In this document: piece by piece, positions 5,001 through 21,448 of the stretch
Layout: each line of letters opens with the position of its first letter
Numbering within the stretch: the stretch's first letter is position 1
Source of the DNA: Candidatus Krumholzibacteriota bacterium
GTDB taxonomy: Bacteria > Krumholzibacteriota > Krumholzibacteriia > Krumholzibacteriales > WJIX01
Direction: 5' to 3'
Assembly: GCA_034520215.1 (NCBI GenBank)
Contig: JAXHNR010000002.1
Coordinates: 6,859-70,858, forward strand
DNA length: 64,000 bases
Made by a program: the position numbers and the translations under genes
The notes under the pieces: model-generated
Told to the model about the DNA's origin: nothing
Seen by the model: only the letters and a program-made list of their open reading frames with translations
Database searches by the model: none

Positions 5001-6452
5001 GTGAATGTAAAGTATGTTATAAAAATCCTGGCTGTACTGCTTTTGATCCTGGCTGTATTTATGATTCTGCCGGTTATACTCGCTTTCTATTACCGGGAGG
5101 CTTACCTTTCAATAAGTTTCTTAGTACCGGTTAGTTTTATCCTGATTTTCAGTTCAATTGTTCTATGGTTTACAAGAAAAGAAGAAACACCTCATCTCAG
5201 TACAAGAGACGGTTTTTTGCTGGTAAGTTCTGGATGGTTTTCAGCAGCTGCCTTAGGGGCAATCCCCTTTGTCATATCAGGGGCGATACCTTCGATTACT
5301 GACGCCTTTTTCGAGGCAATGTCAGGTTTTACAACTACCGGAGCTTCCATATTGACCGATATAGAGTCCCTTCCCAAAACCATACTTTTCTGGCGCTCAT
5401 TAACGCACTGGCTGGGCGGCATGGGTATAATTGTACTGCTGGTTGCTATATTTCAATTTATAGGAGCAGGAGGCCTGGGCCTGCTTAAAGCAGAGGCTCC
5501 GGGCCCGACGGTAGACAAGATTACTCCGAAAATAACGAAAATGGCAAAAATACTGTGGTTTGTATATGTGGGGCTGACTTTATGTCAGATAATTCTTCTT
5601 ATGGCGGGGGGGATGGATCTTTTTAACGCCAGCACGCATGCTTTCGGAACGATGGCTACGGGAGGATTCTCCACAAAAGCCGGTTCTGTGGGGCATTACA
5701 GTTCCCCTTTCATACATTATGTCATCACGATCTTTATGCTGCTGGCGGGAATAAACTTTGTTCTTTACTTCAAAATGTTGACCGGAAAGATAGACGCTTT
5801 ATTTAAAGATACCGAACTGAAGGTATATCTGAGTATATTCGCCGTAGCCAGCATAATAATAGCTGTAAGCCTCTATGGTAATAGCTTCCCATCTGTGGAG
5901 GAGAGCTTCCGGTATGCAGTGTTTCAGGCCGCCTCCATACTTACAACGACAGGTTTTGCGACAGATGATTTTGCCAGCTGGCCTTTCATGGCACAGGCAG
6001 TTCTTTTCATACTTATGTTTGTGGGCGGATGTTCAGGATCTACGGGGGGCGGGATTAAGGTTATCCGTTATGTTAAACTCTTCAAACTGGGAAACAATCA
6101 GATGAAATACCTGCTTCATCCCCGCGGTATATTCAAAATAAAGGTTGGAGAGAATATACTAAAGAAAGATGTCATGTATCTGGTTTCCGGTTTCTTTTTT
6201 CTCTACATACTGCTGCTTTTTGTAGTATCACTTATTGTATCTTCCGGCGGCAACAGTATTCTCACTTCATTTTCATCCGCCCTTGTTACCCTGGGAAATA
6301 TCGGCCCGGGTTTCGGCAGGGTCGGGCCGACTCTGAATTTCAGCTTCTATCCCGATTATATAAAATGGGTTCTGAGTTTTGCAATGATGGCGGGCCGCCT
6401 GGAGATTTACACCCTTCTTGTTATATTTACACCTATGTTCTGGAAAAAGTAA
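5001..6452 (+). CDS. trkH: Trk potassium uptake membrane subunit TrkH
   Basis: Starts 3 nt after the trkA stop (GTG start). Multi-TM protein with repeated selectivity-filter-like motifs (MSGFTTTGAS, TMATGGFST, ILTTTGFAT). Confidence 0.9.
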   Translation: MNVKYVIKILAVLLLILAVFMILPVILAFYYREAYLSISFLVPVSFILIFSSIVLWFTRKEETPHLSTRDGFLLVSSGWFSAAALGAIPFVISGAIPSITDAFFEAMSGFTTTGASILTDIESLPKTILFWRSLTHWLGGMGIIVLLVAIFQFIGAGGLGLLKAEAPGPTVDKITPKITKMAKILWFVYVGLTLCQIILLMAGGMDLFNASTHAFGTMATGGFSTKAGSVGHYSSPFIHYVITIFMLLAGINFVLYFKMLTGKIDALFKDTELKVYLSIFAVASIIIAVSLYGNSFPSVEESFRYAVFQAASILTTTGFATDDFASWPFMAQAVLFILMFVGGCSGSTGGGIKVIRYVKLFKLGNNQMKYLLHPRGIFKIKVGENILKKDVMYLVSGFFFLYILLLFVVSLIVSSGGNSILTSFSSALVTLGNIGPGFGRVGPTLNFSFYPDYIKWVLSFAMMAGRLEIYTLLVIFTPMFWKK

Positions 6453-6458
6453 GAAAAA

Positions 6459-6782
6459 TTAACGGTTCTTTTTTTCGAATGTGACGGTCACAGCCAGCAT
6501 CGATGTGGTCCCGAACAGAATGGAGATGGCCACGACTCCGGGAAGCAATGTCATGATGCTGTCCAGACCGGTGAGCATGTTGATGGTGGTGGTCTTGCCT
6601 GCGCCATTCGGGCCCAGAAAGCCAAACAATTCCCCACGGGGAACGCTGAAAGCAGCGCATTCAACAGCCGTGAGATCGCCGAATCGTTTGCTCAGATCAG
6701 AGGCTTCTATCATCTGCGCTTCTCTCATCTCTTTTCGTCCTAATTGCCGTAAGTGCTTGAGGAAGCCGATCCGCCTATCCAA
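6459..6782 (-). pseudogene. Deletion remnant fusing an ABC ATPase N-terminus (Walker A) to an ABC-2 permease C-terminus
   Basis: [17 protein letters not shown]...[20 protein letters not shown] is followed directly by the hydrophobic permease-like tail [27 protein letters not shown]. There is no Q-loop, signature or Walker B motif. Confidence 0.6.
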
Positions 6783-6942
6783 AGAGCGGAGCGTCCGCTA
6801 ATCCTCCACATTTAAAAGTCTTTGGGTTATTTTTTTCCATTCCGCCAGAGTCTTTCCATTTACTCGATAATGGACAAAATAGCCTTGCTTGTTCGCACCG
6901 CCCCCGTCGACAGAAAAACCCGAATTTCTTATAATTAAAGCG

Positions 6943-7548
6943 CTATTGCTGCTGTTGTATTTTTCGCTGATCAAGATCTTTTTTAGCGACCTCCAAGACG
7001 CCGCGTTTTTTGATTAGCGTTCTGATTCTATCACTATCCGGAAAACGGATGGCATCATAAACGCACCACACTTTGCAGGATGTGCACCCCACCATGCACT
7101 GGAGCGGTCGAGCAACAACAGTTTTTTTACGGCCCCAGTCATAATCAAAAACATTTCGGCCGCAAGAGGTCACGCATATGCCGCAGCCTGTGCATTTATT
7201 CAAATCGACAATCGGCGCCCAATCAATCTCTTCTCTGGGTATGCCTTTCCAGTATGAGAACTTGTTGGTTAATTCATTGTTATTTTTCCGCTCGGTTTTT
7301 GAACAGTGCTTCTGCATAAATTGTGCAATATGTTCTTTGGCCCATATATGACCCTGGCATATAATTTTGTCATCCACAATCAAAGCCGGAGTGAGCAAGA
7401 TATTCTTTTCTTCTATTTTCAGAATTTCATTCATATGATGAATAATATCCAGCTTACATTCAAGGCCCAATTCGTGGATAATATCCTCCACATCAGTTTT
7501 AAGCTGCCTCTGCATGGCGCTGTCCCTACCGATAATTTTAATGTTCAT
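6943..7548 (-). CDS. Fusion of a Cys-less MTH895/thioredoxin_3-like domain with a 2x[4Fe-4S] ferredoxin domain
   Basis: The N-terminus parallels the two CPKC thioredoxins in the window, but GRDSAMQRQ replaces GTGCPKCKK. The C-terminus has CTGCGICVTSC and CTSCKVWC cluster motifs. ATGA overlap with the upstream RND gene. Confidence 0.7.
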   Translation of the reverse strand: MNIKIIGRDSAMQRQLKTDVEDIIHELGLECKLDIIHHMNEILKIEEKNILLTPALIVDDKIICQGHIWAKEHIAQFMQKHCSKTERKNNNELTNKFSYWKGIPREEIDWAPIVDLNKCTGCGICVTSCGRNVFDYDWGRKKTVVARPLQCMVGCTSCKVWCVYDAIRFPDSDRIRTLIKKRGVLEVAKKDLDQRKIQQQQ

Positions 7549-9065
7549 GAAGATTCTCCTTTCGATTTGAAGGTTTTCTCAAAAATAAAATACAGATTCG
7601 GCAGCAACAGAAGCGTCACGAACAGGGAAAAGAACAATCCGCCGATCACCGCGATGGCCATCGGCTTAAGCATGTCGCCGCCTTCACCCCAGTTGATCGC
7701 CAGCGGCATTAAGCCCAGCATAGTGGTTGCCTGAGTCATCAGAATGGGACGCACGCGCAGGGGCGCCGCTTCCAGAATCGCTTCCCGCAGCGCCAGGCCT
7801 TTCCGGCGGTATTCATTGATAAAGGAGATCAGCACCACGCCCTGGGTGGCGATACCGCCGGTCATGATGATCACGCCGATGAGTACGGTGGCACCGGCCG
7901 GAAAACCGGTCAGAAGTAACGCCGCAATCACGCCCACTAAAGCGAAGGGCACCCCCATTAAAATCAGCAGCGGCTGTTTAAAGGAATTGAATTGTATCGC
8001 CAGAATGACATAAGCGAAGAACAGAGCGAACAAGATTATTTTTATCATGACGTTCTGGCTTTCCTGCATCAGATAGACCTGGCCGCCAAACTCAAACGAA
8101 TAGCCTTCAGGCATAGGGATATCAGCCAGCGATTGATTGACTACCGCTGCCATTTCACCCACGCTGGCGCCTGCGGTCACGTCGCTGGACACCACAATCT
8201 GTTTCACCTGATCCTCACGGATAATCTCTACCGGCCCCAACCGCGGGATAACTTTTGCCACGGTGCGCAGCGGCACTTTCTCACCGTTTCTTCCATCGAT
8301 GAACAGATTCTCGATATCCTGCTTTGAAGTCATGCGATTTTCAGGCACCATCACCCGAATGTCGTAATACTCACCCTGGTCGCGATATTGGGAGGCCACC
8401 GCGCCGTCAATCAGGCTTTTTACTGAATTAGAGATTGTCTGCGTGGAAATGCCCAAATCTGCCAGTCGCAGACGATCCACGTGAATCTGATATTCAGGCT
8501 TGGTAATCTGTGTACCGACGCGGATATTGGTCAATCCGTCTATTTTATTCAAACGAGCTGCCACCTGCTGCGCCATTTCATTCAATCTGTTTAAATCGAA
8601 GCCTCGGACTTTGATCTCCACGTCCGATTCGCCCATTTTACGGATGCCTTTCATCTTTGCCTGTTTCACGACCAGTCTGGCGCCAGGAACGCATGATTTC
8701 ATCACCTGACGGTCTTGATGCGTTCGGCATGTATTGTTCGGTCGAAAAGGGCCGATTGGCTTTGGGAACCAGCTCGATGCCAATCTCGCCTTCATTGGCG
8801 ATTTCGTAGGTAATGAGCCCCCAAACTTTTCCGCCGGACAGCACAAAATACTTGTCCACATAGCGGGTCGTCTTGCACGACGCTCTCCAGCCGGGCCAGC
8901 AGGCTGTCGGTGCGGGCTACCGGAGGTGCCGGTCGGCAAAATCGCCTTTATCATGAGCCGTCCGTCATCCACTTTGGGCAGGAATTCGCTGCCGATCTTG
9001 CCGAAGAAAAAGACGGCGGCGATCAGTAGCGCGATAAAAACCGCTACGACAATCCAGCGGAACAT
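7545..9065 (-). pseudogene. RND (AcrB/CzcA-type) efflux pump, C-terminal segment, internally frameshifted
   Basis: Typical RND C-terminal TM bundle (GVPFALVGVIAALLLTGF..., LGLMPLAINWGEGG). Residues about 45-125 of this ORF are Pro/Arg-rich nonsense, while RND-like sequence (DKYFVLSGGKVWGLITYEIANEGEIGIELVPKANRPFS) sits in another frame at 8638-8859. Confidence 0.8.
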
Positions 9066-10646
9066 CAGAAGAACATCCAGAGCCCGGCGATAGATTGCGG
9101 TCGATGACCTCGAATGAAACGGTCGGCAAGGCTGTGATGTTTGCGGGGATGCCCCTTGGCGGTGACCAGGTAGTGGGTCAGCATGGGCGTGACGGTCAGC
9201 GCTACAACCAACGAAATGACCACGATCCCCGCGATGGTTAGAATCAATTCGCGAAACAACAATGATGTTAGACCCGGAATGAGTAGAAACGGCAGGAACA
9301 ACGCCAAAAAAGTCAGGGTGGACGCCAGCACAGCAAGTGCGACTTCGCTAGTAGCGTTGTCTGCTATTGTGTCACTGCTTCTTCCTTCTATCAGATGCAT
9401 CCGGGTGATATTTTCGATCACCACTATGGAGTTGTCCAGCACCACGCCCATGGCCACCACCAGTCCGCCCAGGGAAAATATGTTGATGGAAAAATTGCCC
9501 AGTTTCATCAGAAAAAAATTGAACAGAATCGTAACCGGCAGGGCAACGAGCATCACCAGCACCTGCCGCCAGTGCCCCAGGAAAAGAAAGATCACCAGAA
9601 TAACCAACAGCACGGCGACAATGGCAGAATCTCTGACGCCGGCGATAGCGCCTTTAATGTAATCTGCCTGGTTTTCCACAGTGTTAAAATGAATGTCGGG
9701 CGGTATGGTTTCTTTCAGTTTTTTGGTCAACTGGTTTACCGCTTCCGCCACTTCAACCGTGTTCGCGTCAGCTTGCTTGAGAATGTTTAATTTAATGGCA
9801 GGCTTACTGTTAAACCGGGTAATCACGCGCTCGTCTTCGTGGCTGTCTTCCACAGCTGCCAGATCTTTTAAACGCACCATCGAATGATTGTTATTTAAAA
9901 TAACCACGTTGCGTATATCTTCCATGCTATGGAATTCTGCGGTGGTGCGCACAATATATTCCCGGCTCCCCTCGGTTACACGCCCCGCCAGCCGCTCAAT
10001 ATTTTCTTCCCGCAACCGATTGATCACCTGGTTCAACGTCAGGTTGTAGGCAGCCAGCCGTTCGGGATCGAGATGGACACGGATTTCCCGCTCCAGCCCG
10101 CCGACAATTTCGGTGCCGGCCACGCCTTTCACTGCCAGAAACTGATCCTGCAGCACATTCTCGACCCAGGTGCGCAGTTTCACTATATCCCTACCCTCGG
10201 ACTGAATGATAAGCTGCACCACCGGCAATTGCGACGGATCGGCTTTGAACATGATCGGCGGGTCCACGTCGGGCGGCAGTTTGCGGCCCGCCAGCCCCAT
10301 TTTCGCCACAACATCCTGATACGCCACATCCACATCCGTGCCGTATTCAAAATTGATCAGCAGAGTATACATACCCTCAATGCTGGACGACTCCAGGTAA
10401 TCGAGATCATCCACGGTGCTCATGAGCGCGCTCGACAGCGATCGGCTGATGTTGTCGTTGATTTCCTCCGGGGTCGCGCCGCGCCAGTAGACATAGACCT
10501 TGATCATGGGGTAGGTGATGTCCGGCAGAAAGTCTGTGGGCATGCTGGGAATAGCCATAGATGCCCGAGGACGATCGCCGTTGCCATCAAGCACGAGTGG
10601 TGGCTACCGGGCGCTTAATGCTGATAGATGTAAGTTTCATTTTCAT
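9065..10646 (-). pseudogene. RND efflux pump, N-terminal segment, multiply frameshifted
   Basis: The canonical start MKMKLTSISIKRPVATT (10646 downwards) stops after 17 codons. TM1 (LMATAIVLG) and the following PTDFLPDITYPMIKV lie in two other frames. A further frame break at about 9065 joins it to the 7545-9065 segment. Confidence 0.8.
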
Positions 10647-10729
10647 ACTCCAATTCTATTCTACCCAAAGACACCGAGCACATAGATATTTTTTGATACC
10701 TTTTTTAGGTGTTCTCTGTAGTTTTGCGG

Positions 10730-11760
10730 CTATACATTCCCCTGAATCTTTACTGCCGTCCCTGTTTTCAACTCTTGCTGTCCCTCGACAACAAGTTGAT
10801 CGCCTGACAGCGAGACTCCTGGAACGAATCTCCAGCCAGCCATCCGGCCTCCGATGCCGGTGACCAGAGCCACTTTCTCTTCTGCTTTCCCATTCTTCGA
10901 CGATGAAACAGGCCTTGTTTTGAGGGCGCTCAATAATCGCATGGTACGGGAATCGCAATGATGCCTTGCGAGCGTTCGGGTGACAAACGTCGCCTGGACA
11001 AACATGCCAGCTTTTAAGTTGGGACAAGGTTTTTTGAGCTGAATTTCCACCATGCCATTGCGTGTCTGACTGTCTACCTGCGGATAGATGCGTTGTACAA
11101 TCCCTTTGAAAAACTTTTCGGGGCAGGCATCAGCGTGAATCTCAGCCGACTGTCCGATCTCAAGTTTACGGATATCCAGTTCCGAAACATGGACATCCAC
11201 CCGTAATTTTGCGCTACTCTGAATTTCGAACAGTTTGGTTTTAGCTGGCACCATGTCGCCGAGATCAACCCAGCGCCGGGAAACCACGCCATCGATCGGC
11301 GATGTCACTGGATTTTCTTTATATTGCTGCAGGGCAAACTGGTAATCCTGCTGCGCCCGCTTCAATTCTTGTTGGAGTTTCAGATTATTGGGATCTTTTG
11401 CCAGCTCATCTTTTTTTGCCTGCACGAGCAACCGCGCCGAATTGATTATGTCTTCCCTCAACAGCGAGCTGAGCATGGCGACTACTTGATTGGCTTGCAC
11501 CCGATCCCCTTCGTGTACCAGCAATCTGGAAATCTTTCCTTCGCCTGTGGCCAGGATATTGGCAACATTCTCCGCCCGCAGCGTTCCGGGCAATTGTAGT
11601 TTTTCCATCGAGTTTTCCGGTTTTGAACCGGCTGCACCTTGACCAGTTTGGCATACGGATTTTTTGACTTCCGCGGACTTCTCCTGGTTTCGAGCCGCAG
11701 CCGCTGGATCAGCCAGAGCGATACAAGCGACAGCCATTACGATTGAAATATTCGTTTCAT
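10730..11760 (-). pseudogene. RND periplasmic adaptor (HlyD/MFP family), frameshifted
   Basis: Signal-peptide start MKRIFQS hits a stop and continues as MAVACIALA in another frame. The C-terminal beta-barrel part alternates between frames (ASLRFPYHAIIERPQNKACFIVE in the 10656-11027 frame versus GKAEEKVALVTGIGG in the main frame). Confidence 0.75.
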
Positions 11761-11881
11761 CTCGACCTCATTCCTCATCTACTAGATTTAATTCTGTCAC
11801 CTGCAGTCCCACCATTTTGGCGCCGCTGTCCGTTGTCATTGACAGCGGTTGCCGGCTCGGTGATCAGGCATTGGCTCCCAG

Positions 11882-13174
11882 TCACAAAATTCCCATCACT
11901 GCCAGCAGCCGGGCGCGGGCAATATTATAATCCAGCGTTGCCTGATCCAAGGTTAGCTGACTGTTGAGCAACGTCTTCTGAATATCCAGCAAGTCCGTAT
12001 TGGAACGCCGACCGGCATGATATTCGATCATGGCCAGGCGATAACTCTGCCGCGCCTGCTCCACCGCCCGTTGATGAATGGCGATTTGCTGCTCTTTTTC
12101 TTTTAGCCGAGTGTAGCTGTTCTGCACCTGGGTTACCAGATTCTTGCGCACATATTCACGCTGCCATTGAATCTGCTCCAAACCTGCTTTTGCCTCATCG
12201 ATCTTTGCTCCGATGACGTTGCCGTCATAGATGGGCACTTCGATGTTCAGACCCCAGAAGTAGCGCTTGTTCTTATCCAGAGAAAAGGATTCAAATCCGA
12301 ATTCATAACCGTAATACGCCTGGGCAGAAACTTGCGGCAGTCGCGCCGCCTGCTGAATTTTTATTTTTGCTTCGCCTTTGCGCAGATCGAACTCCAGTTG
12401 TTTCCAGGTGGGATTATTTTCCAGCGCCGTCGGCACCAGGGTTTCCGGGCTCTGCTCGAATGGAATCACCTGCAAAGAGTCCTGCGGCAGTAAAATCTGG
12501 GGGCGTTTTCTGCCAAGCATCAGGCATAGCTCATATGACACGGCCTGATAATCGTTCTGAATTTCAAGCAAATTACCATCCGTGGTAGCAATGGCAACGC
12601 TAATACGGTCCAGCTCCAGTTGCGACATGTGACCGGCTTCCACTAACAGCCGGGCGTAGCGCTGCTGTGTCTCCAATTGCTTTCGATTCTCCAGCAGGAT
12701 CTGTTCTTGATTTTTCAGCGTCTGCAACTGGAAATAATCAAAGGTGACCGCCAGCTTTAAATTCAATTGTTCGGAAACAAAGGACTGTTCCAGCGATTGA
12801 ACTTCCGCTTCCGCCGCCTGTTTGGTATGTTTTAATTTTCCCCCGGTAAATATGGGTTGACTGATAGAAATAGTTGGGAAAAGATCATGTTGAATATTTC
12901 CCAGCACCTGTTTCCTGAACCCGGGCACAATATCCAGATAACCGTATGAAAAATTCCCTTCGATTTTCGGCAGCAGCTCTCCTTCGGCCTGCTGAAGCCT
13001 TGCCTGACCGGCTTTGGTGCGCGACGCAGCTTTTTTCAACAGCTCGTTGTTGGCGAGAGCCTCCTGCATCGCATCATGTAACGAAATGGCGCTAGTGTCT
13101 GAAACCGTTTGCTGGGCATGAAGCACTAGGGGAATGAATAACGAGTAAAGCACGATAATAATTTTTCGTTTCAT
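11882..13174 (-). CDS. TolC-family outer membrane efflux protein (OMF)
   Basis: Signal peptide, then two tandem OEP-type coiled-coil/beta repeats. Gene order OMF-MFP-RND as in czcCBA/cusCBA-type operons. The frame is intact. Confidence 0.85.
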   Translation of the reverse strand: MKRKIIIVLYSLFIPLVLHAQQTVSDTSAISLHDAMQEALANNELLKKAASRTKAGQARLQQAEGELLPKIEGNFSYGYLDIVPGFRKQVLGNIQHDLFPTISISQPIFTGGKLKHTKQAAEAEVQSLEQSFVSEQLNLKLAVTFDYFQLQTLKNQEQILLENRKQLETQQRYARLLVEAGHMSQLELDRISVAIATTDGNLLEIQNDYQAVSYELCLMLGRKRPQILLPQDSLQVIPFEQSPETLVPTALENNPTWKQLEFDLRKGEAKIKIQQAARLPQVSAQAYYGYEFGFESFSLDKNKRYFWGLNIEVPIYDGNVIGAKIDEAKAGLEQIQWQREYVRKNLVTQVQNSYTRLKEKEQQIAIHQRAVEQARQSYRLAMIEYHAGRRSNTDLLDIQKTLLNSQLTLDQATLDYNIARARLLAVMGIL

Positions 13175-13200
13175 ATTAACTCCAATGATTTTATTCTCAA

Positions 13201-13974
13201 TTATAATGCAATCCCATACGCCCGATTAATGGCTGGAAGGAGATTTTTCAGTATTTTTTCTGCTGACGCTTTATTATCGTTGCCCACACTCAATGCCAGA
13301 TCATCCAGTTGTGCGGATAGCGTTTTCAGGGCAGTCTGATAATTCTTGCAGCGTGCTTCATTATCAGGCGCGGGGCAGGGCGCCAAGAAAACATTGTCCC
13401 GAAGCTTCAGCAGATCGCCCAGCATCGGCTTAATGGAAGCCAATCCTGATTTTTGCTCTTCACTGATCATCTTTTTCGCCAGCTTGCGCAAGTGAAACAG
13501 CCGGTCCGCCGCATAGACCAGGTTATTTTCTTCATGCATTTTTACAAACAAGGCGCAGGTTGCGCCACAAGTTTTTAGTGCATCTCTAAACATTCCGTTA
13601 GCCAAATGCTTTTCCATATCGATCATGCCTTGATGAATTGCATCCAGACGGGCACTGAATTTCTTGTCCTGCTTGTATTGGGCCGGCGGCTGGCTCTGGA
13701 ATTTTTGCTGGACGTTTTCCCATAACGCCGTGGACTGTCGGATATGTTCCAGTCCTTTCGCTTGCTTTTGAGAATCTTCCTGTTTGATTAATTCCTGCAC
13801 AATGGCGCAGTACTTCCTCATTTTCTGTCGGCTTTGAAGCACCATGGTATCGAAATTCTTAAGTTCTGCAGAAAAAACTGGTTCTTGTATCGGAAAAACC
13901 GAATCGGCGATACCCACTAAAATGCCAAAGGCAAGCAAGAAAACAGAATAATTAAAAAAATTTGATTTTCGCAT
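13201..13974 (-). CDS. Hypothetical exported helical protein with CxxxC and CPx8C motifs
   Basis: GGAGG RBS before MRKSNFFNYSVFLLAFGILVG (signal/anchor). I recognise no family. Cys motifs CGATC and CPAPDNEARC. Tightly packed between the DsbD_2 gene and the tolC-like gene. Confidence 0.6.
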   Translation of the reverse strand: MRKSNFFNYSVFLLAFGILVGIADSVFPIQEPVFSAELKNFDTMVLQSRQKMRKYCAIVQELIKQEDSQKQAKGLEHIRQSTALWENVQQKFQSQPPAQYKQDKKFSARLDAIHQGMIDMEKHLANGMFRDALKTCGATCALFVKMHEENNLVYAADRLFHLRKLAKKMISEEQKSGLASIKPMLGDLLKLRDNVFLAPCPAPDNEARCKNYQTALKTLSAQLDDLALSVGNDNKASAEKILKNLLPAINRAYGIAL

Positions 13975-14008
13975 GACTGTTTCCTCCAATTTCAATTTAA
14001 TGTTCATG

Positions 14009-14713
14009 TCAATATACGCCCCAGATCAGATATACACCTCCCAGAATCACCAGAATCCCGCAGATCTTTTTCAGGATCACAGCGCCTTTGGACCGTTCGT
14101 TCCAGTGCAGGTATTTCTGTACCATGCTGGTGAAGGTCCCGGCCAGTACAATAATCGAACAGTGCCCGATGGCATACACAAGGATCAAAGATCCGGCAAC
14201 TACGGGTTGTGATGAGGCTGTATTGAATACAATCCCCAGCATGGGCGCCATATAGGCGAATGTGCACGGGCCAAGGGCTACGCCAAAAAGCAGGCCAATG
14301 ATAAACGCGGCCAAAGCGCCCTTTTTCTTCATTTTGGGCTGATTGTGAACGCCCAGAAAAGGCAGATTGATGATTTCAAGAAGATGCAGGCCGATTACAA
14401 AGAAAATCACGGCGACCGCGTAATTGCCGATCTTTCCCACATCGCCCATAATGCGCCCCATCAGCCCCGTGATCAGCCCGATGACCGCGATGGTAATCAG
14501 TATACCGGCAGAGAAAAGTGCGGCCAGGATGAACGCGCGCTTCTTTGCGACAATGCCCTGGCCGTCGATGAATCCCACGATCAGCGGGATAGACGATAAA
14601 TGACACGGGCTGAGCAGTATGCTCAAAATACCCCATAAAAAGGATGCGGTCAGGGCAAGCCATGCCGCGCCGCTCAGGCTTTGGGTCAACCAGACGAACA
14701 AATCTTGTATCAT
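14009..14713 (-). CDS. DsbD_2/CcdA-like thiol:disulfide membrane protein (family that includes ArsG-type transporters)
   Basis: Six TM segments with the paired motifs LLSPCHLSSIPL and LGPCTFAYMAP. 4-nt overlap with the upstream thioredoxin-like gene. Confidence 0.75.
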   Translation of the reverse strand: MIQDLFVWLTQSLSGAAWLALTASFLWGILSILLSPCHLSSIPLIVGFIDGQGIVAKKRAFILAALFSAGILITIAVIGLITGLMGRIMGDVGKIGNYAVAVIFFVIGLHLLEIINLPFLGVHNQPKMKKKGALAAFIIGLLFGVALGPCTFAYMAPMLGIVFNTASSQPVVAGSLILVYAIGHCSIIVLAGTFTSMVQKYLHWNERSKGAVILKKICGILVILGGVYLIWGVY

Positions 14714-15159
14714 TTCACACCCTTCTTTTTCAATACCTCGACCAGCTCTTCCTTGGGGAAAAATCCTTCATGCCGAAAATATTCATTGCCGTCTTTATCC
14801 AGAAAAATCTGGGTGGGAATGGCACGTATTCGGTATTTTCGGGCATAGGGCTTTCCCTCTTCAGTCCAGACATCGTGAAACACAACTTTGACCTGCCTGG
14901 CGTACTCTTTTTCAATTTCATCCATAATTGGCTGCATCATCCTGCACGGGATGCATTTCACTGATCCCAGTTCAATAAAAGTGACCAGCAGTGAATCCGA
15001 TTTACTGCTCTTTTGCAAATGTGAGGAAGTATCTGAAACGGTTGTCTGTTTTTTTGTTTTTGCGGCGGATGTCTCTTCGTTTTTCTGATCAGAGCAGTTG
15101 ACTTGCATCAACAGTATAACAAAAAAAAGAGGATAGACGATTTGACATTTTTTCATCAT
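14710..15159 (-). CDS. Thioredoxin-fold lipoprotein (TlpA/ResA-like, CIPC active site)
   Basis: Lipobox-like LLMQVNCS. GSVKCIPCRMMQPIMDEI thioredoxin motif and cis-Pro region AIPTQIFL. Confidence 0.8.
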   Translation of the reverse strand: MMKKCQIVYPLFFVILLMQVNCSDQKNEETSAAKTKKQTTVSDTSSHLQKSSKSDSLLVTFIELGSVKCIPCRMMQPIMDEIEKEYARQVKVVFHDVWTEEGKPYARKYRIRAIPTQIFLDKDGNEYFRHEGFFPKEELVEVLKKKGVK

Positions 15160-15187
15160 ATTATTTCTCCTTGTAATTGATTGATCT

Positions 15188-15334
15188 TCAAACCACCAGC
15201 TTTGTCAGTGGTTCTCGATCGGAAACTTGCCAGTGTGAACAGCACGTTTTCAAACGTAAATGACGGACTTCGAATGCCGGAACTTCCTTGCCGCAAGCGT
15301 TGCGTTTAACCGTTTTCTTACCTGATAAGCCCAT
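15188..15334 (-). CDS. Possible 48-aa Cys-containing small ORF (KTCCSHW), translationally coupled
   Basis: The ATG lies 3 nt after the stop of the 15337-15585 gene. MGLSGKKTVKRNACGKEVPAFEVRHLRLKTCCSHWQVSDREPLTKLVV. No family recognised, so coding status is uncertain. Confidence 0.3.
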   Translation of the reverse strand: MGLSGKKTVKRNACGKEVPAFEVRHLRLKTCCSHWQVSDREPLTKLVV

Positions 15335-15336
15335 GG

Positions 15337-15585
15337 CTATTCCAGCATTTTCTTAATTTCTTCCACATTCGGTATTTTTCCCGCCACTTTCACCTCGCCG
15401 TCCACGGCCAGGCCCGGCGTCATCATCACGCCGAAGTTCATAATGTCGTTGATGTCCGTCACTTTTTCGATTTCATATTCGATGCCCAGCTCTTTCGACG
15501 CCTGTTCGGTCAGCTCGGTGAGCTTCTTGCACTTGGGGCATCCTGTGCCAAGAATTTGTAATTTTTTCATTTCCTTACCTCTCAT
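15337..15585 (-). CDS. MTH895/TM0996-type small thioredoxin (redox-active disulfide protein 2-like)
   Basis: MKKLQILGTGCPKCKKL...MMTPGLAVDGEVKVAGKIP. Paralog of 18626-18859. Confidence 0.85.
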   Translation of the reverse strand: MRGKEMKKLQILGTGCPKCKKLTELTEQASKELGIEYEIEKVTDINDIMNFGVMMTPGLAVDGEVKVAGKIPNVEEIKKMLE

Positions 15586-15595
15586 TTTAATACAG

Positions 15596-15754
15596 TCAAT
15601 GGCCGGAATATTGATAGCCGGACCGGAGAAAGGCGATTAGATGCCCCGGTCCGGCACCCCGCATTTGGATGCTGGAGAACCGGGGCAAAATGGTGAAGGA
15701 ACAGACCGCGACGATCGACCCGGATACAGAAGCAACCAGATAGGCCAGCCATTT
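15596..15754 (-). pseudogene. About 50-codon internal remnant of an ArsP-like (COG0701) permease
   Basis: KWLAYLVASVSGSIVAVCSFTILPRFSSIQMRGAGPGHLIAFLRSG aligns by eye with KVLSYGVASVSGTILAVCSCTVLPLFAGIYRMGAGLGPATAFLYSG of the intact permease at 17117-18418. Confidence 0.6.
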
Positions 15755-15783
15755 GCATAATAGTGAAATTTAATCAACGCGCA

Positions 15784-16134
15784 TCAGCCTTTACCTTTAC
15801 AAAGATCATTACGACTGACTTTACTTGCTTTCACAAGATCATTATGGATTATACTGTCATCATTCACCCATTCCCTAAGTAACCCAAGTATTTCTTTTGC
15901 ATATTCCTTTTGTGTCTTCTGGTTGATATAATAGTTAATCCATTTATGTTCTCTTTGCTCAAATATTAAATTTGCTTCTTTAAGTATTGATAAGTGCTTT
16001 GAAGTCGTTGATATTGCCAATCCCAGCACCTCTGTTATTTCGCATACGCATAAAGGTTTGACCTGAAGTATCTTCAGTATTCTTACACGGTTCTTATCCG
16101 ATAAAGCTTTAAAAACTGGTATGAGCGTGTTCAT
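15784..16134 (-). CDS. arsR: ArsR/SmtB family metalloregulator (CVC motif)
   Basis: LSDKNRVRILKIL...PLCVCEITEVLGLAISTTSKHLSILKEANL. Noticeably AT-richer than its neighbours. Confidence 0.9.
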   Translation of the reverse strand: MNTLIPVFKALSDKNRVRILKILQVKPLCVCEITEVLGLAISTTSKHLSILKEANLIFEQREHKWINYYINQKTQKEYAKEILGLLREWVNDDSIIHNDLVKASKVSRNDLCKGKG

Positions 16135-16149
16135 TATATCACCTTTTTC

Positions 16150-16169
16150 ATTTCGTCCAGTAACGAAAT
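16150..16169. promoter_or_regulatory. Candidate ArsR operator: perfect inverted repeat ATTTCGT-N6-ACGAAAT
   Basis: Located 16-35 bp upstream of the arsR start at 16134. The same TTCGT-N6-ACGAA core recurs upstream of the homologous arsR at 25276. Confidence 0.45.
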
Positions 16170-16300
16170 ATAAAATGCAACCATTTAACTGTCAACCTTT
16201 TTCTTGTGTGGTGGAGTTTCCCCAATTTTTTAAGTGTCAAAGAGTGGCAGCTGGGCTTTGCTGCGGTAGGAACGGCCCTTCAAATCCCTCCAGAAGGCTT

Positions 16301-16540
16301 TTATTCCATCGGCAAGGGCAGCATACCTAAGTCAATGATACCGAAAAATCTCTTCGCCTCTTTCAGCGCATAATGAGCAACAGCTTTCAGCCTGATACTG
16401 TCTCCAAGATGTATCGCGGCAAAGTACATCGCACATAGCGCCATCACCATCATGTTCTGAAGACCCCTGTATCTCAGAAGCCGGATGTTCTCTATGTCAT
16501 AGCTCTGTTTTATGCACCTTATCATCTTCTCCGCATCCTA
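16301..16540 (-). mobile_element. C-terminal remnant of an IS4-superfamily-like DDE transposase
   Basis: AEKMIRCIKQSYDIENIRLLRYRGLQNMM...AKRFFGI parallels ETIRFIKQSYHLKDIRVLDYERLRNMA...AKRFFGV of the degenerate IS at 29.5-32.1 kb. It is preceded by an in-frame TAG and no N-terminal part is present. Confidence 0.55.
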
Positions 16541-16651
16541 CCTCTTGATAGATGAGGGGAACATATTAGGGGGGCGCCGGCCTTTATACCGCTATCTAAC
16601 AACAGGTTACAGCCATTTCAAGATATGGTGTATTTCAGGCAGAAAAATACC

Positions 16652-16680
16652 TTGACATCATCAAGCTTGTTGGCTATTTT
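16652..16680 (+). promoter_or_regulatory. Sigma70-like promoter candidate (TTGACA-17-TATTTT) overlapping palindrome CTTGACATCATCAAG
   Basis: Read directly from the sequence, about 30 bp upstream of the arsR2 start at 16712. Function not tested. Confidence 0.35.
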
Positions 16681-16711
16681 GCCAATTAACAAATTAGATA
16701 AGGTTATAACA

Positions 16712-17032
16712 ATGCTCATGGACAAAAAAACGAAACAGAAATACGAAGCTCGAGCACAGATCATCAAAGCCATGGCACATCCGACCAGGCTGTTCATCGT
16801 CGATGAACTGGATAAGGGTGAACGATGTGTCTGTGAGCTGCGTGACATGATCGGCGCTGATATCTCAACCGTCTCAAAACACCTTTCCGTATTGAAACAG
16901 GCAGGAATTGTCGAGGGTGAAAAACGCGGACTTCAGGTGTGGTACAGTCTCAAAATCCGATGCATTCTGAACTTTTTCGGATGCGTTGAGGATGTGTTGA
17001 AATCAAACGCGCAATCTGTTAAAACGTCGTAG
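16712..17032 (+). CDS. arsR: ArsR/SmtB family metalloregulator (CVC motif), second type
   Basis: MAHPTRLFIVDEL..GERCVCELRDMIGADISTVSKHLSVLKQAGI. The ATG at 16712 fits family length better than the ORF-track start at 16625. Confidence 0.9.
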   Translation: MLMDKKTKQKYEARAQIIKAMAHPTRLFIVDELDKGERCVCELRDMIGADISTVSKHLSVLKQAGIVEGEKRGLQVWYSLKIRCILNFFGCVEDVLKSNAQSVKTS

Positions 17033-17116
17033 CCAAGTAGTTTTTTTGCCCGGGAACCCGGCAATTTCGCCAAATAATTGGACGTTAGAAACCCATTATT
17101 ATGAGGAGTTTGAAAA

Positions 17117-18418
17117 TTGAAATTGAACTGGAAATCTGAATGGAAGCCGCTGGCCTGGATAGTCGCGGTCTTCCTTATTTTCTTTTATCTGCCTATCGAC
17201 AGTGTTCGCCTGCGCGGAGCAGTTATTGAAGCCCTGGCACTGACTAAATGGTACGCGCAGGAGCACGTTCTCCTCTGTCTTGTGCCGGCCTTTTTCATCG
17301 CCGGCGCGATAGCTGTTTTTGTCAGTCAGGCTTCGGTAATGAAGTATCTCGGGGCGAAGGCGCATAAGGTGCTGTCGTATGGCGTGGCATCGGTCTCGGG
17401 AACAATACTCGCCGTCTGTTCATGTACAGTTCTTCCGCTATTTGCGGGAATCTATCGTATGGGCGCCGGTCTGGGACCAGCCACCGCCTTTCTATATTCA
17501 GGCCCGGCAATCAATGTCCTGGCCATAGTCCTTACGGCGCGAGTTCTGGGACGCGGACTTGGCATTGCCAGAGCGGTCGGCGCTATAGTCTTTAGTATTG
17601 TCATCGGGCTTCTGATGCATCTGATCTTCCGCAAAGAGGAAACCGAAAAAGTAAATGCCCAGATGGCTGCGCCGGAGCCGGAAGAAAGCCGGCCCCTCTG
17701 GCAGAACGGTCTCTACTTCGCCGCCATGGTTGCGATCTTAGTGTTCGCCAATTGGGGAAAGCCCGATGAAGCTTCGGGGTTCTGGTCGATGATTTACTCA
17801 TACAAGTGGGTGATTACAAGCGTTGCGGCGGCCGGGCTTGGCGCTATGCTCATTTTCTGGTTCAAACTATCGAAAGTGAAGGTCATCCTTACGGGTGTAG
17901 CCGCTGCTTCGGTGGCGCTGCTTTTCCCGCATGAGCCGCTTCTCGCATTCTCGGTCGTGGTAATTGGACTTTCGCTGATAATCAGCAGGCGCGACGATGA
18001 ATCCGGGGAATGGTTCTCACAGACATGGGGATTTGCCAAACAGATTCTGCCGCTTCTGTTCGGGGGAGTACTTATCGCCGGGCTGTTACTGGGCCGTCCG
18101 GGCGAAGAAGGCCTGATACCATCGCAGTGGATAAGCAATCTGGTGGGCGGAAACTCAATCGCGTCAAATCTCTTCGCGTCGGTGGTGGGGGCGTTCATGT
18201 ACTTCGCCACTCTCACCGAAGTGCCGATTCTTCAGGGTCTGATAGGTAACGGCATGGGGAAAGGACCGGCTCTGGCGTTGCTGCTTGCCGGACCGGCTCT
18301 GTCTCTGCCCAATATGCTGGTCATCCGATCGGTGATGGGAACAAAGAAGACAATCGTTTTTGTGTCGCTGGTAGTCATTATTGCTACCATCAGCGGACTG
18401 ATTTACGGAGCGATATGA
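17117..18418 (+). CDS. ArsP-like permease (COG0701/DUF318 family; organoarsenical or arsenite efflux candidate)
   Basis: Multi-TM protein with VCSCTVLPLFAGIYRMGAGLGPATAFLYSGPAINV and a second repeat half. The arsR-permease-thioredoxin arrangement is typical of this family. Confidence 0.8.
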   Translation: MKLNWKSEWKPLAWIVAVFLIFFYLPIDSVRLRGAVIEALALTKWYAQEHVLLCLVPAFFIAGAIAVFVSQASVMKYLGAKAHKVLSYGVASVSGTILAVCSCTVLPLFAGIYRMGAGLGPATAFLYSGPAINVLAIVLTARVLGRGLGIARAVGAIVFSIVIGLLMHLIFRKEETEKVNAQMAAPEPEESRPLWQNGLYFAAMVAILVFANWGKPDEASGFWSMIYSYKWVITSVAAAGLGAMLIFWFKLSKVKVILTGVAAASVALLFPHEPLLAFSVVVIGLSLIISRRDDESGEWFSQTWGFAKQILPLLFGGVLIAGLLLGRPGEEGLIPSQWISNLVGGNSIASNLFASVVGAFMYFATLTEVPILQGLIGNGMGKGPALALLLAGPALSLPNMLVIRSVMGTKKTIVFVSLVVIIATISGLIYGAI

Positions 18419-18625
18419 CCGTGAGAACTGATCAGACTTCAATTGTTATGCTGGCCAGTTGCTTCGAGGGTGGCGGTGGGCGGTTGGGCCTTGATGAGTG
18501 TAGGCACGATCCTCTTTGGATTAGTTGTGGCCCTATCCAACTGAGCGCCAGCTTAATTTTATATGAGGGGCGGACAAAGTGGAAGACAGTCGATAACAGC
18601 AGAATAGACTCAGGAGGGTTGCTAT

Positions 18626-18859
18626 ATGAAGAAAATTGAGATTCTGGGGACCGGGTGCCCCAAATGCAAAAAGCTCGCTGAACAGGTGCAGATAGCCGCC
18701 AACGAGCTGAATCTGGACTGCCAGATCGGGAAGGTGGAGGACATTCAGAAAATTATGGGCTATGGGATAATGATGACGCCCGCACTGGTTGTCGATGGTA
18801 AAGTGAAAGTAACCGGCAAGGTGCCTTCAGTTGATGAACTGAAAAAGCTCATCGCTTAG
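18626..18859 (+). CDS. MTH895/TM0996-type small thioredoxin
   Basis: MKKIEILGTGCPKCKKLAEQ...MMTPALVVDGKVKVTGKVP. Confidence 0.85.
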   Translation: MKKIEILGTGCPKCKKLAEQVQIAANELNLDCQIGKVEDIQKIMGYGIMMTPALVVDGKVKVTGKVPSVDELKKLIA

Positions 18860-18888
18860 AAAACAGGTCATAGGCAGGAGATTTGATA

Positions 18889-19271
18889 ATGGAGATAGAA
18901 CAAAACGGGTGTTGCGGCGGTTCCTCGCGATTGGTGTTCGCCTGCTCCGGCGCGTCCGATGTCGGCGCCGCGGCCGATCAGGCCGCACGGCACTTTTCAC
19001 CAATGAACCAGCGTCCATGGGGTGCCTGACGGCCGTCGCCAACGGACTTGACTTCGCGATGGATTCCATAAAAATAGCGGAAAGGGTTCTCGTTATCGAC
19101 GGCTGTTCGGAAAACTGTGCCAGACTGGCTACAATGAAAGCCGGAGCATCATCCTTCGACCATATCCTGCTTTCAGACCTCGGCACGGGAAAGGGCAATA
19201 CCAAAGTCGACCGGGAGTATATTGCCCGTGCTTATGAACGGACGGAAATGATAGTAGCTGAAGGAAAATGA
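18889..19271 (+). pseudogene. DGC-domain (putative zinc-binding, ArsE-like) protein with one frameshift
   Basis: The N-terminus MEIEQNGCCGGSSRLVFACSGASDVGAAADQAARH is in frame 1 and stops at about 19029. The remainder (ASMGCLTAVANG...VLVIDGCSENCARL...) is in the frame of ORF 18909-19271. The switch lies in or near the T-run cacttttcacc (about 18990-19000). Confidence 0.65.
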
Positions 19272-19366
19272 AGGGGGTTGGCCAAGGTGTGGCAGCTTAT
19301 CAGAAACAAGAATGAGTTCCTCAACTACGTGCAGGATGAGATCAACGCATACCTGAAGGAGAATTA

Positions 19367-20065
19367 ATGGATTCTTACATTGTTGCTCTTGGTTCAGCCG
19401 TCTGGCTGGGAATCCTTACTTCCATATCGCCCTGCCCTATGGCCACCAACATCGCCGCGATCAGCTTTATCGGCCGACGGGTTGAAAATCCCCGAAAAGT
19501 CCTCGCCTCCGGGTTGCTTTATACGCTGGGCCGGATGTTGACATATCTTGTGCTCGGTATCCTGATTGTAGCCAGCATACTGTCTATTCCGGAGCTGGCG
19601 ATGTTCCTTCAGAAGAACATGAACAAGTTCCTGGGGCCAATTCTCATTGTCGTCGGTATGTTTCTCCTGGAGATGATTTCATTTGACTTGATGCGCAGTG
19701 ATATCGGATCTCGTATGCAGGGACGGGCGGAACGGTTCGGCATCTGGGGAGCGGCTCTTCTGGGTCTGCTCTTTGCTCTGTCATTTTGTCCGGTTTCGGC
19801 CGCTTTATTCTTCGGCAGTCTCATTCCGCTGGCTGTCGAGCATAATTCCGCGGTGGTAATACCCTCCGTCTATGGCGCCGGGACTGCCCTGCCGGTAATT
19901 GTATTCGCTTTCGTAATTGCCATTAGCGCCCGGATGGTTGGTGTGATGTTCAATAAGCTGAAAACTTTCGAAAAGTGGGCACGGCGAGTCACGGGCGTAG
20001 TGTTCATACTGTTAGGTATCCACTACACTCTAGCCTATATCTTTGGAATAAACATGTTCAACTAA
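19367..20065 (+). CDS. DsbD_2-type membrane protein, ArsG-like transporter candidate
   Basis: Paired motifs SISPCPMATNIAAISF and LSFCPVSAALFFG. Paralog of 14009-14713. Confidence 0.7.
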   Translation: MDSYIVALGSAVWLGILTSISPCPMATNIAAISFIGRRVENPRKVLASGLLYTLGRMLTYLVLGILIVASILSIPELAMFLQKNMNKFLGPILIVVGMFLLEMISFDLMRSDIGSRMQGRAERFGIWGAALLGLLFALSFCPVSAALFFGSLIPLAVEHNSAVVIPSVYGAGTALPVIVFAFVIAISARMVGVMFNKLKTFEKWARRVTGVVFILLGIHYTLAYIFGINMFN

Positions 20066-20075
20066 GGAAAATCTC

Positions 20076-20588
20076 ATGAAACTGAAAACCGTTATTTCTG
20101 CAGTTCTTCTTCTCTTCGTAGCCATAAGTATAGTGACTTTGATTGTTAAACAAACGAGTGACACTCCACCGGCAATTACCAGCCAGCAGCCCGTCACAGA
20201 TGAACAATCACAGAATGACCGGCTGATAGTCTATTACTTCCACGGGAATAAGCGGTGTCCAACCTGCAATACACTCGAAGCATATTCAAAAGAGGCGGTG
20301 GAGACCTGCTTCTCGGCCGAACTGGAATCGGGCCGGATTGAGTGGCAGGTGGTCAACTATGATAAACCCCGTAACGAGCACTTCCTGACGGACTATGATC
20401 TGAGTTTTCAGTCGATGGTGCTTGTAAATATGAAAGACGGCAAGGAAACAGGCTATAAAAATCTCGAAGAGATCTGGGACCTGGTCTGGAACAAGCAGGG
20501 ATTCATAACTTATGTGCAAAGCGAAATAGCCGATTTTTATATGCAAAACGAAACAGCCGATTTTGTGAATACCAAAGAGAGGGAGTAG
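20076..20588 (+). CDS. Membrane-anchored thioredoxin-fold protein (CPTC), ArsF-like
   Basis: N-terminal TM anchor, then LIVYYFHGNKRCPTCNTLEAY. As I recall, this is the architecture of proteins named nitrophenyl-compound nitroreductase subunit ArsF family. Confidence 0.6.
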   Translation: MKLKTVISAVLLLFVAISIVTLIVKQTSDTPPAITSQQPVTDEQSQNDRLIVYYFHGNKRCPTCNTLEAYSKEAVETCFSAELESGRIEWQVVNYDKPRNEHFLTDYDLSFQSMVLVNMKDGKETGYKNLEEIWDLVWNKQGFITYVQSEIADFYMQNETADFVNTKERE

Positions 20589-20619
20589 CATGAACGGCTT
20601 AGCCGTACACATCTCGAAA

Positions 20620-20818
20620 TCCGGATCAGGCGACTGACCGGAACCGCATTCATTCTTTCCGGGCAACTGCAGGGTTGTTCATGTCCGGCTTCGGCGATCC
20701 GCCAGAGATGGCCGGGGAACTCGCGGAGCAAGGCGCATCAGAAGAAGAGCAGATGGAGTGCTATCGGAAGGTCCGTGACGAGATCAAAGCCTTTGTCGAA
20801 ACCCTGCTCAAGAACTGA
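20620..20818 (+). pseudogene. arsC: C-terminal remnant of an LMW-PTP-type arsenate reductase ArsC (frameshifted)
   Basis: FFPGNCRVVHV / GFGDPPEMAGELAEQGASEEEQMECYRKVRDEIKAFVETLLKN matches the C-terminus of the intact ArsC at 24486-24938 (VVHVGFEDPP...EEEALNSYRKVRDEIKEFIQTL). There is no N-terminal CX5R loop. Confidence 0.6.
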
Positions 20819-21430: not shown

Positions 21431-21448
21431 ATAAAGACGATGGGCTAC

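Follow-up and report, generated by a model that had tools for sequence, protein, structure and literature searches.

A decayed arsenic-island gene cluster in Candidatus Krumholzibacteriota that joins a thiol relay, a helical cysteine protein and a tripartite RND pump

Introduction

Why should a run of genes that begins with an ArsR-type repressor hold both a thiol-reductant relay and a tripartite efflux pump of the resistance-nodulation-division (RND) family? The question is raised by a minus-strand gene cluster in a 64,000-nt stretch of DNA from Candidatus Krumholzibacteriota (the window; all feature positions are numbered on this whole stretch). The cluster represents, in decayed form, a conserved and horizontally mobile module that belongs to arsenic-resistance (ars) islands. 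For the module we favour, with a probability of roughly one half, an export in two stages of a trivalent arsenical, which may be an organoarsenical; in this export ArsP would act first and a periplasmic carrier with three cysteines (Cys3), maintained in the thiol state, would then hand the arsenical to the RND pump.

Arsenic resistance is usually described as stopping at the inner membrane, with ArsB, Acr3, ArsP, ArsK and other proteins. Castillo and Saier (2010, PMC2963123) named CcdA, a thioredoxin and a protein termed redox-active disulfide protein 2, along with ArsP homologues, as determinants of ars operons; the redox trio was proposed to support the cytoplasmic ArsC, and thioredoxin-like proteins were suggested as the electron donors of CcdA.

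Results

Organisation of the gene cluster

All genes of the cluster are co-directional and closely spaced, running from 16195 to 6943 on the minus strand. A reading made earlier from the sequence alone (the sequence-only reading) had given this gene order, and every gene in it was found. Two junctions are 4-nt ATGA overlaps (thioredoxin/CcdA-like and RND/thioredoxin-like-ferredoxin fusion) and most of the remaining gaps are 25-35 nt. An intact locus from a KSB1 genome (L001), which encodes an ArsP of 435 aa, a periplasmic adaptor (MFP) of 336 aa and an RND permease of 1022 aa, was used for comparison. The features of the cluster are, from 5' to 3':

16151-16195, minus strand: promoter-like site TTGACA-17-TATATT (11/12 promoter match) with the inverted repeat TTTCGTTACTGGACGAAA, the presumed ArsR operator
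15784-16134, minus strand: ArsR/SmtB repressor of 116 aa with LCVCE and a C-terminal DLC cysteine (HTH_5 match)
15544-15754, minus strand: remnant of an ArsP-family (PF03773) permease, 73 codons with a frame change, found by tblastn with the intact ArsP of L001
15337-15585, minus strand: cytoplasmic mini-thioredoxin (Thioredoxin_3, CPKC) of the MTH895/ArsE family, likely start 15570 (TIGR00412)
15188-15334, minus strand: open reading frame (ORF) of 48 aa, a degraded copy of a conserved ORF of about 50 aa with CxxC..CC..CxxC (relatives in loci L029 and L007)
14710-15159, minus strand: exported lipoprotein-type thioredoxin with CIPC (PF00085, PF13098; N-terminal hydrophobic segment ending in Cys)
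14009-14713, minus strand: CcdA-like DsbD_TM membrane protein, a transmembrane thiol-reductant conduit (PF02683)
13201-13974, minus strand: exported 257-aa protein of an unannotated family, with a signal peptide and two four-helix bundles (no family match)
11882-13174, minus strand: outer-membrane factor (OEP/TolC-like), intact, 430 aa (81% full-length identity to L001)
10730-11760, minus strand: RND periplasmic adaptor (MFP), disrupted (TIGR01730)
7545-10640, minus strand: RND permease of the HAE1/MdtB-like type, disrupted (PF00873; class from the intact L001 orthologue)
6943-7548, minus strand: cytoplasmic fusion of a CxxC-less Thioredoxin_3-like domain and a 2x[4Fe-4S] ferredoxin (ATGA overlap with the RND gene)

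The promoter-like site (16195-16167) lies upstream of arsR; it is strong, sigma-70-like and the top-scoring site of its kind in the region, and it is overlapped by the inverted repeat TTTCG-N8-CGAAA (16151-16168). The same architecture is found upstream of the orthologous arsR genes of L001 and L029 and of the third arsR of the window. In the 64-kb window TTCG-N8-CGAA occurs at just two sites, each directly upstream of an arsR gene. Terminators splitting the cluster, a possibility that the sequence-only reading had raised, were searched for and none was found in the minus-strand intergenic gaps before 6644; no structural RNAs or repeats were detected within 6000-21500. From the promoter/operator layout and the lack of an intergenic terminator before 6644, it is reasonable to infer a single ArsR-controlled unit, in which the genes would be co-transcribed. 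Just 3' of the cluster a truncated ORF for an ABC-transporter ATPase (6459-6782, minus strand) has a Walker A motif followed by unrelated sequence, a further sign of decay.

Conservation of the module in other genomes

The context of the 257-aa protein was compared in about 30 non-redundant loci that encode homologues, with genes labelled by phmmer seeds (two loci, L022 and L028, were too short to judge). The OEP/MFP/RND set adjoins the homologue in 28 of the 30 informative loci, from about nine phyla; the exceptions are L002/L003/L010, where the relay and ArsP are found with no pump, and L020. The loci span KSB1/Zhuqueibacter, Calditrichota, Melioribacteraceae, Marinimicrobia, Planctomycetota, Verrucomicrobiota/Kiritimatiellia, Omnitrophota, Desulfobacterota and UBP1.

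Two gene orders were found. Order A, in KSB1, Calditrichota, Melioribacteraceae and Marinimicrobia, is (ArsR-ArsP-Trx3-[small ORF-DGC]-Trx-CcdA)-unk-OEP-MFP-RND-(Trx3/Fer4-DUF169), where unk is the 257-aa homologue, and is exemplified in intact form by L001, L007 and L029. Order B, in Planctomycetota, Verrucomicrobiota/Kiritimatiellia, UBP1 and others, is ArsR-ArsP-OEP-MFP-RND-unk-Trx3-Trx-CcdA (L018, L025, L026 and L032). The 257-aa homologue stands at the junction of pump and relay in both. A search for recurrence, proposed with the sequence-only reading, found the families together elsewhere, with intact versions, and their recurrence in two different orders in about nine phyla supports the view put forward there that the modules are functionally linked. 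Even family members of 20-23% identity are still encoded 3' of an RND gene; one distant member is followed by a DGC gene and another lies within an ArsR-ACR3/Usp-ArsC cluster.

In the lineage to which the window belongs, the module is an accessory one: the 257-aa protein is encoded in 3 of 41 related genomes and in none of 4 congeners. The RND clade (at least 49% identity) was found in 9 of the 208 genomes of a phylum sample. All three RND-clade loci of this sample that encode the 257-aa protein have the relay (genomes G000, G008 and G026), and none of the three that lack the protein and have enough flanking sequence does (L040, L041 and L044), a comparison of three loci with three.

Other genes recur around the module. 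ORF pairs of half-size PF03773 (ArsP_1) proteins occur in the window (28335-29479, minus strand) and in L012 (12114-13156), L029 (12066-13141) and L030 (17108-18117); in some loci they lie between the OEP and MFP genes and may represent a two-piece permease of the system. In several order A loci the place directly 5' of the helical protein gene is taken by a gene with a resemblance, judged by eye, to pyrroline-5-carboxylate-reductase-type NAD(P) oxidoreductases; the window has no such gene:

L011 423-1220: oxidoreductase-like gene
L012 6080-6925: oxidoreductase-like gene
L029 7779-8612: oxidoreductase-like gene
L001 9756-9953: remnant of the same gene
L007 9648-10172: remnant of the same gene

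Between the relay and the helical protein gene, L012 (7025-7669) and L013 (4878-5678) encode what by eye are FmdE-domain proteins with a C-terminal zinc ribbon, together with TauE-like permeases.

Arsenic context

The window is an ars island, with an ArsG equivalog (300.1 bits, 19367-20065, plus strand), ArsF, ACR3 (372 bits) and ArsC. At least 12 of 30 loci have acr3, arsC or arsFG genes no more than 10 kb from the cluster. An ACR3 scoring 500-855 bits to that of the window lies within this distance in L007, L014, L027, L029 and L032, an ACR3-ArsC pair is present in L035, and ArsC, ArsG or ArsF in L013, L017, L026, L027, L031, L032 and L033. As a genome has one or two such genes, their recurrence beside the cluster in several phyla is far above chance, and it agrees with the metalloid link that had been proposed from the window alone.

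A divergent cassette on the plus strand of the window (16625-20588) encodes ArsR2, an intact ArsP (433 aa), a Trx3 of the ArsE family, a DGC protein, ArsG and ArsF. Its DGC gene is frameshifted, and its ArsG and ArsF make up a parallel DsbD_TM/thioredoxin-fold module beside that of CcdA and thioredoxin. Further along (21720-25304, minus strand) are a Usp-ACR3 pair, ArsC and the third arsR, with the TTCG-N8-CGAA operator 5' of it; the ACR3-Usp pairing recurs in L007, L014, L026 and L030.

The exported helical protein

Homologues of the 257-aa protein are few, with 37 in a collection of 5.8 billion proteins and 162 representatives at E <= 0.001 among 1.84 billion cluster representatives. The relatives have no family annotation beyond sub-threshold matches to cytochrome b562. 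A structure prediction, which had been suggested for 13201-13974, gave a confident all-helical AlphaFold model (pLDDT 92.3, pTM 0.82), in which eight long helices form two four-helix bundles. Comparison of the model with the PDB using Foldseek gave no match at E < 0.03; the weak matches were to b562/BRIL and PsbQ bundles. An internal duplication giving rise to the two bundles received no signal (hhalign probability 2.7%).

In close relatives the invariant residues include C56, M120, C136, C140, H147, E148, H161, R163 and K164. In the wider family D157 never varies, C56, W85, P97, Y100 and C136 are almost always kept (at least 90%), and most members have C140. The three most distant relatives, which are free of cysteine, have lost all three cysteines together. 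The CPx8C motif, which the sequence-only reading had stressed, is not kept in distant relatives. From the helix boundaries of the model, C56 (helix 1), M120 (helix 3) and C136/C140 (one face of helix 4) would lie at about the same height of bundle 1, a placement that would allow a thiolate site of the type that binds As(III). A metallochaperone role like that of CusF is a candidate function; the export signal, the conserved cysteines and the gene adjacency are observed.

The C-terminal bundle has a weak likeness to cytochrome b562 (PF07361), and the top Foldseek matches are b562/BRIL derivatives; a second bundle and three conserved cysteines set the protein apart from cytochrome b562. An identity as a haem-binding cytochrome b562 was rejected, as the PF07361 score is 15.4 bits (cut-off 30). 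Two relatives, P0014 and P0020, reach 25 bits. The match covers only profile positions 27-93, without the haem-ligand positions, and distant members do not retain H147, H161 and M120.

The tripartite pump and its class

The outer-membrane factor matches PF02321 at 210 bits over two OEP stretches and falls short of the TolC subfamily (TIGR01844, 161.9 against 225). The adaptor exceeds the cut-off of TIGR01730 (94.9) both in the frameshifted ORF of the window (120 bits) and in L001 (192.8 bits).

The class of the RND permease was read from the intact L001 orthologue, the window copy being frameshifted. The sequence-only reading had placed the pump among the heavy-metal RND proteins. This identity was rejected: the score to the CusA/CzcA model TIGR00914 is 458 bits (cut-off 701) and the nearest solved structure is MdtB (421 bits), followed by other HAE1 pumps, with no CusA or ZneA among the top 60 PDB relatives. 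The curated HAE1 models are also not reached (TIGR00915, 516 bits, cut-off 940; NF033617, 760 bits, cut-off 1250); HAE1 is the nearest class, and the top NCBIfam match is RND_permease_2 at 760 bits, below its cut-off of 1250. An HAE1/MdtB-like class suggests that the substrate is amphiphilic or organic and not a bare cation.

The regulator, the permease remnant and the thiol relay

ArsR belongs to the ArsR/SmtB family (PF01022, 54 bits, cut-off 22; NF033788, 78.9 bits, cut-off 55). In an alignment the cluster-associated ArsR proteins are of two types, having either LCVCE and a C-terminal Cys or CVC and PC-x7-C, and in both types the candidate sensor-site residues are cysteines only. The set in the window, LCVCE with the C-terminal Cys, is a candidate As(III)-responsive site. 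Of the minus-strand arsP only residues 82-154 of 435 are left and the CSC motif has become CSF; the motif is intact (LAVCSCT) in full-length ArsP, namely the plus-strand paralogue of the window (17117-18418) and the copies in L001 and L004.

The CPKC mini-thioredoxin matches TIGR00412 at 110.8 bits (cut-off 62), retains its CxxC, which places it in the MTH895/ArsE family, and is 91% identical to its L001 orthologue. The CIPC thioredoxin is 71% identical to that of L001 and has no match to the ArsF model at E < 0.01. The CcdA-like protein belongs to the CcdA/DsbD family (PF02683, 50.1 bits, cut-off 27.1), with its cysteines in SPCHL and GPCTF; its identification as ArsG was ruled out by a score of 50.1 bits to the equivalog model NF040495 (cut-off 200). 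Orthologues of the Trx3-like/ferredoxin fusion lie 3' of the RND gene in L001, L031 and L033. In G000 (C2:881730-882847) a DUF169 gene is followed by a ferredoxin-only relative of the fusion elsewhere in the genome, which mirrors the Trx3/Fer4-DUF169 pairing 3' of the pump in these three loci.

The 48-aa ORF was rejected as an intact novel gene in the window. It is a degenerate copy, 75% and 55% identical (over 36-38 aa) to the ORFs at the same position in L029 and L007, and has lost both CxxC pairs. The conserved zinc-ribbon-like ORF of about 50 aa (L029 3798-3950; L007 7870-8025), between the Trx3 and DGC genes, looks real and is below the size handled by most annotation pipelines. The DGC-domain gene (PF08859) that lies 3' of it in L029 and L007 is absent from the minus-strand cluster of the window.

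State of the copy in the window

Compared with L001, the RND gene of the window falls into seven successive frame segments, with at least six frame changes:

10640-10599, minus strand: first RND segment
10590-10561, minus strand: second segment
10543-9113, minus strand: third segment
9092-8922, minus strand: fourth segment
8920-8846, minus strand: fifth segment
8865-8728, minus strand: sixth segment
8708-7560, minus strand: seventh segment

The MFP gene has at least five frame changes (about five segments) and an in-frame stop near its 5' end. The OEP, the 257-aa protein, CcdA, the thioredoxins and the ferredoxin fusion align with L001 at full length in one frame. In a DNA alignment with four orthologues the MFP and RND genes of the window (7540-11800) show about 25 private insertions of 1-2 nt and no deletions; the insertions are clustered in groups, often beside a substitution. 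Elsewhere in the genome three further RND genes are intact and one has a single shift, and uninterrupted ORFs of 874-1111 codons are present in the window; the damage is therefore local.

For the MFP and RND frameshifts a consensus artefact of the assembly is a live alternative to real decay, because the 25:0 bias towards insertions is odd for natural decay and for long-read error alike, and because the pump genes are fragmented too in L031 and L033, which come from related metagenome-assembled genomes (MAGs) of a Nanopore/Illumina hybrid study (methods in PMC10673233). L031 and L033 are two contigs of one Marinimicrobia MAG, which thus has two paralogous whole clusters; each cluster has its OEP, MFP, RND and DUF169 genes broken up into several ORFs. 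The arsP and DGC deletions in the window are not explicable as a consensus artefact. Unless the insertions are assembly errors, the pump arm of the window copy is probably non-functional.

Discussion

A model for the module

In the two-stage export that we favour, a thiophilic trivalent arsenical would free the Cys-only ArsR from its operator. Candidate substrates are methylarsenite, an aromatic arsenical or an arsenic-thiol adduct, and inorganic As(III) or Sb(III) may also serve; organic or thiol-bound arsenicals are favoured over bare ions because of the pump class and the ArsP and ArsG/ArsF relatives. ArsP would move the arsenical across the inner membrane into the periplasm, where the helical protein would bind it on the thiolates of C56, C136 and C140. 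Electrons passing from Trx3 to CcdA and on to the lipoprotein thioredoxin would hold these thiols reduced, and the Trx-like/ferredoxin fusion may supply low-potential electrons to the relay. The RND pump would then pick the arsenical up in the periplasm and eject it through the outer-membrane channel. The sequence-only reading had envisaged reduction or thiol-conjugation of a metalloid in the envelope; a thiol-maintained periplasmic carrier fits the anatomy of the locus at least as well.

Several points weigh against this model. Every member of the system is known from sequence and models alone, and the closeness of the cysteines in the helical protein is deduced from helix boundaries. Some loci have rhodanese, DoxX/MauE, CMD/AhpD-like, OsmC, TauE or multihaem cytochrome genes and not ars genes, and these neighbours would suit sulfur or redox stress too. 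Scores of the ArsP relatives to the SO_0444 Cu/Zn model and to the SaoE model are equally weak. Neither a conserved Cys nor an unusual Met/His cluster was found in the MFP or RND proteins of 17-20 orthologues across phyla, so the pump itself is without a thiophilic signature, and as the RND clade occurs without the 257-aa protein and relay in five or six related genomes, the pump is not strictly dependent on them. The window copy is broken and therefore allows no inference about function in this organism.

Alternative explanations

The same genes might defend the envelope against thiol-reactive stress other than metalloids, such as reactive sulfur species, polysulfide, electrophiles or oxidants. 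ArsR would then be a dithiol sensor in the style of BigR/SqrR, the relay would mend periplasmic thiols with the helical protein as one of its redox targets, and the pump would expel organic sulfur compounds or electrophiles. Rhodanese and MauE/DoxX genes do lie between the helical protein and OEP genes in L001 and L011, CMD (AhpD-like), OsmC, TauE and FMN reductase genes occur in other loci, organic substrates suit an HAE1-like pump, and the ArsR pair of a helix-3 Cys and a C-terminal Cys is BigR-like in layout (ArsR2 scores 50 bits to BigR). However, the BigR and TsoR models stay far under their cut-offs, CSC-motif permeases of the ArsP family are tied to metal(loid) export, and acr3, arsC and arsFG adjoin the cluster in the loci of several phyla counted above (at least 12 of 30), which makes this explanation unlikely. 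A CusCFBA-like export of soft-metal cations (Cu(I), Ag(I), Hg(II), Cd(II) or Zn(II)), with the helical Cys protein as the counterpart of CusF, seems to us quite improbable, although the logic of a periplasmic carrier and an RND pump is common to Cus, the top NCBIfam match of the ArsP relatives is the SO_0444 Cu/Zn efflux family, the MFP matches barrel-sandwich domains of the CusB/CzcB type and sensors of Cd, Pb or Hg can also have Cys-only ArsR sites. The RND protein is not of the HME type, given its TIGR00914 shortfall and its PDB relatives; the pump lacks Cys and has no conserved methionine clusters beyond those general to RND proteins; and the annotated loci, in which ars genes recur, showed no P-type ATPase, mer or cop genes.

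The pump and the thiol relay could also be independent and share an island and a promoter. The relay would then serve ArsP, the DGC protein or the reduction of arsenate or aromatic arsenicals, along the lines put forward for ArsEFG and by Castillo and Saier, while the helical protein would assist the RND pump in a structural or regulatory way, its cysteines forming a structural disulfide. The relay occurs without the pump in L002/L003 and in published ars operons, L040, L041 and L044 have the RND clade with neither relay nor helical protein, and the window has ArsG/ArsF as a second parallel module, all of which is in keeping with such independence; but the helical protein adjoins both modules in two gene orders, the relay is present or absent in step with it (in a small sample), and its three most distant relatives have lost their three cysteines as a set. 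We judge independence, like thiol-reactive stress, to be unlikely. A chance juxtaposition by rearrangement in an island scarred by insertion sequences is excluded. The island of the window is indeed rearranged and decaying, with an arsP stub, the DGC gene gone and a mirror-image arsR-arsP-trx3 cassette, but the families recur together in about 30 loci of about nine phyla, and the 257-aa family, rare as it is (162 representatives in 1.84 billion), is nearly always encoded beside an RND pump.

Relation to described systems

The nearest functional analogy to the two-stage export model is CusCFBA, the copper/silver efflux system of E. coli, where an RND pump and its dedicated small carrier, products of one operon, rid the periplasm of a thiophilic toxicant. 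CusA is an HME-type RND protein with methionine relays, CusF is a beta-barrel Met/His protein and Cus has no reductant relay; here the pump is HAE1/MdtB-like, the putative carrier is a helical Cys protein and a reductant relay is present. The DsbD/CcdA-TlpA/ScsBC relays pair a membrane conduit, in which two cysteines are essential, with an exported thioredoxin whose task is the reduction of a dedicated client in the periplasm, the clients being involved in cytochrome c maturation or being copper-damaged proteins or peroxiredoxins. Conduit and thioredoxin are alike here, and the client is presumed to be a new helical protein that is linked with an efflux pump. ArsEFG of Shewanella putrefaciens, studied by Chen, Zhang and Rosen in 2019, is reportedly a trio of a mini-thioredoxin, a thioredoxin-fold protein and a DsbD_TM protein in ars islands, and NCBIfam names ArsE, ArsF and ArsG for the same three folds, after the Shewanella work. 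The cluster shares this trio of folds, and a true ArsG and ArsF are found on the plus strand of the window; the minus-strand DsbD_TM protein differs (50 bits against the ArsG cut-off of 200), and ArsEFG has no RND pump.

ArsP of Campylobacter jejuni is reported to be an efflux permease for methylarsenite and roxarsone(III) (Chen et al. 2015, PMC4681449), and ArsP-family permeases, including the SO_0444 and SaoE types, share the CSC motif (Haft, bioRxiv 10.1101/2022.07.06.499078). PF03773 and Cys-Ser-Cys are common to these proteins and to the module; those are stand-alone inner-membrane exporters, whereas the minus-strand copy is a 73-codon remnant. The set of Castillo and Saier resembles the module in four shared families, an ArsR-type regulator, the association with ars genes and the suggested electron donation from thioredoxin to CcdA; it lacks the RND pump, the helical periplasmic protein and the Trx-ferredoxin fusion. 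The sequence-only reading knew of no described system of this composition; no paper on the whole composition was found, but the ArsR-ArsP-Trx3-Trx-CcdA subset was published in 2010 (PMC2963123). No literature on an ars-linked RND pump or on the 257-aa family was found in a search that left most subscription journals outside its reach. The cluster is an ars-island module to which an RND pump and a periplasmic protein of a new family have been added. New here are the helical Cys protein as a constant partner of the pump, the model of this protein and the residues conserved in it, the existence of two gene orders, the operator, the class of the pump and the decayed state of the window copy.

Significance

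A family that had no annotation is now defined, with a confident model and three candidate ligand residues. How arsenicals are cleared from the periplasm of diderms, and why CcdA and thioredoxin occur in ars operons, have been questions since at least 2010, and the cluster offers a testable answer to them. The module occurs in uncultured anaerobes that live in sediments and in arsenic-rich salt flats, settings dominated by thiolated and methylated arsenic species; it could therefore bear on arsenic cycling, and its gene set may act as a metagenome marker. We propose only tentatively, and with some doubt, that this would be the first tripartite RND exporter dedicated to trivalent arsenicals, perhaps organoarsenicals, with a new Cys3 two-bundle carrier that is reduced by an operon-encoded relay of CcdA and thioredoxin; in anaerobes a ferredoxin-linked thioredoxin-like protein may feed this relay. 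If true, a stage that crosses the outer membrane would be added to ArsP-type efflux.

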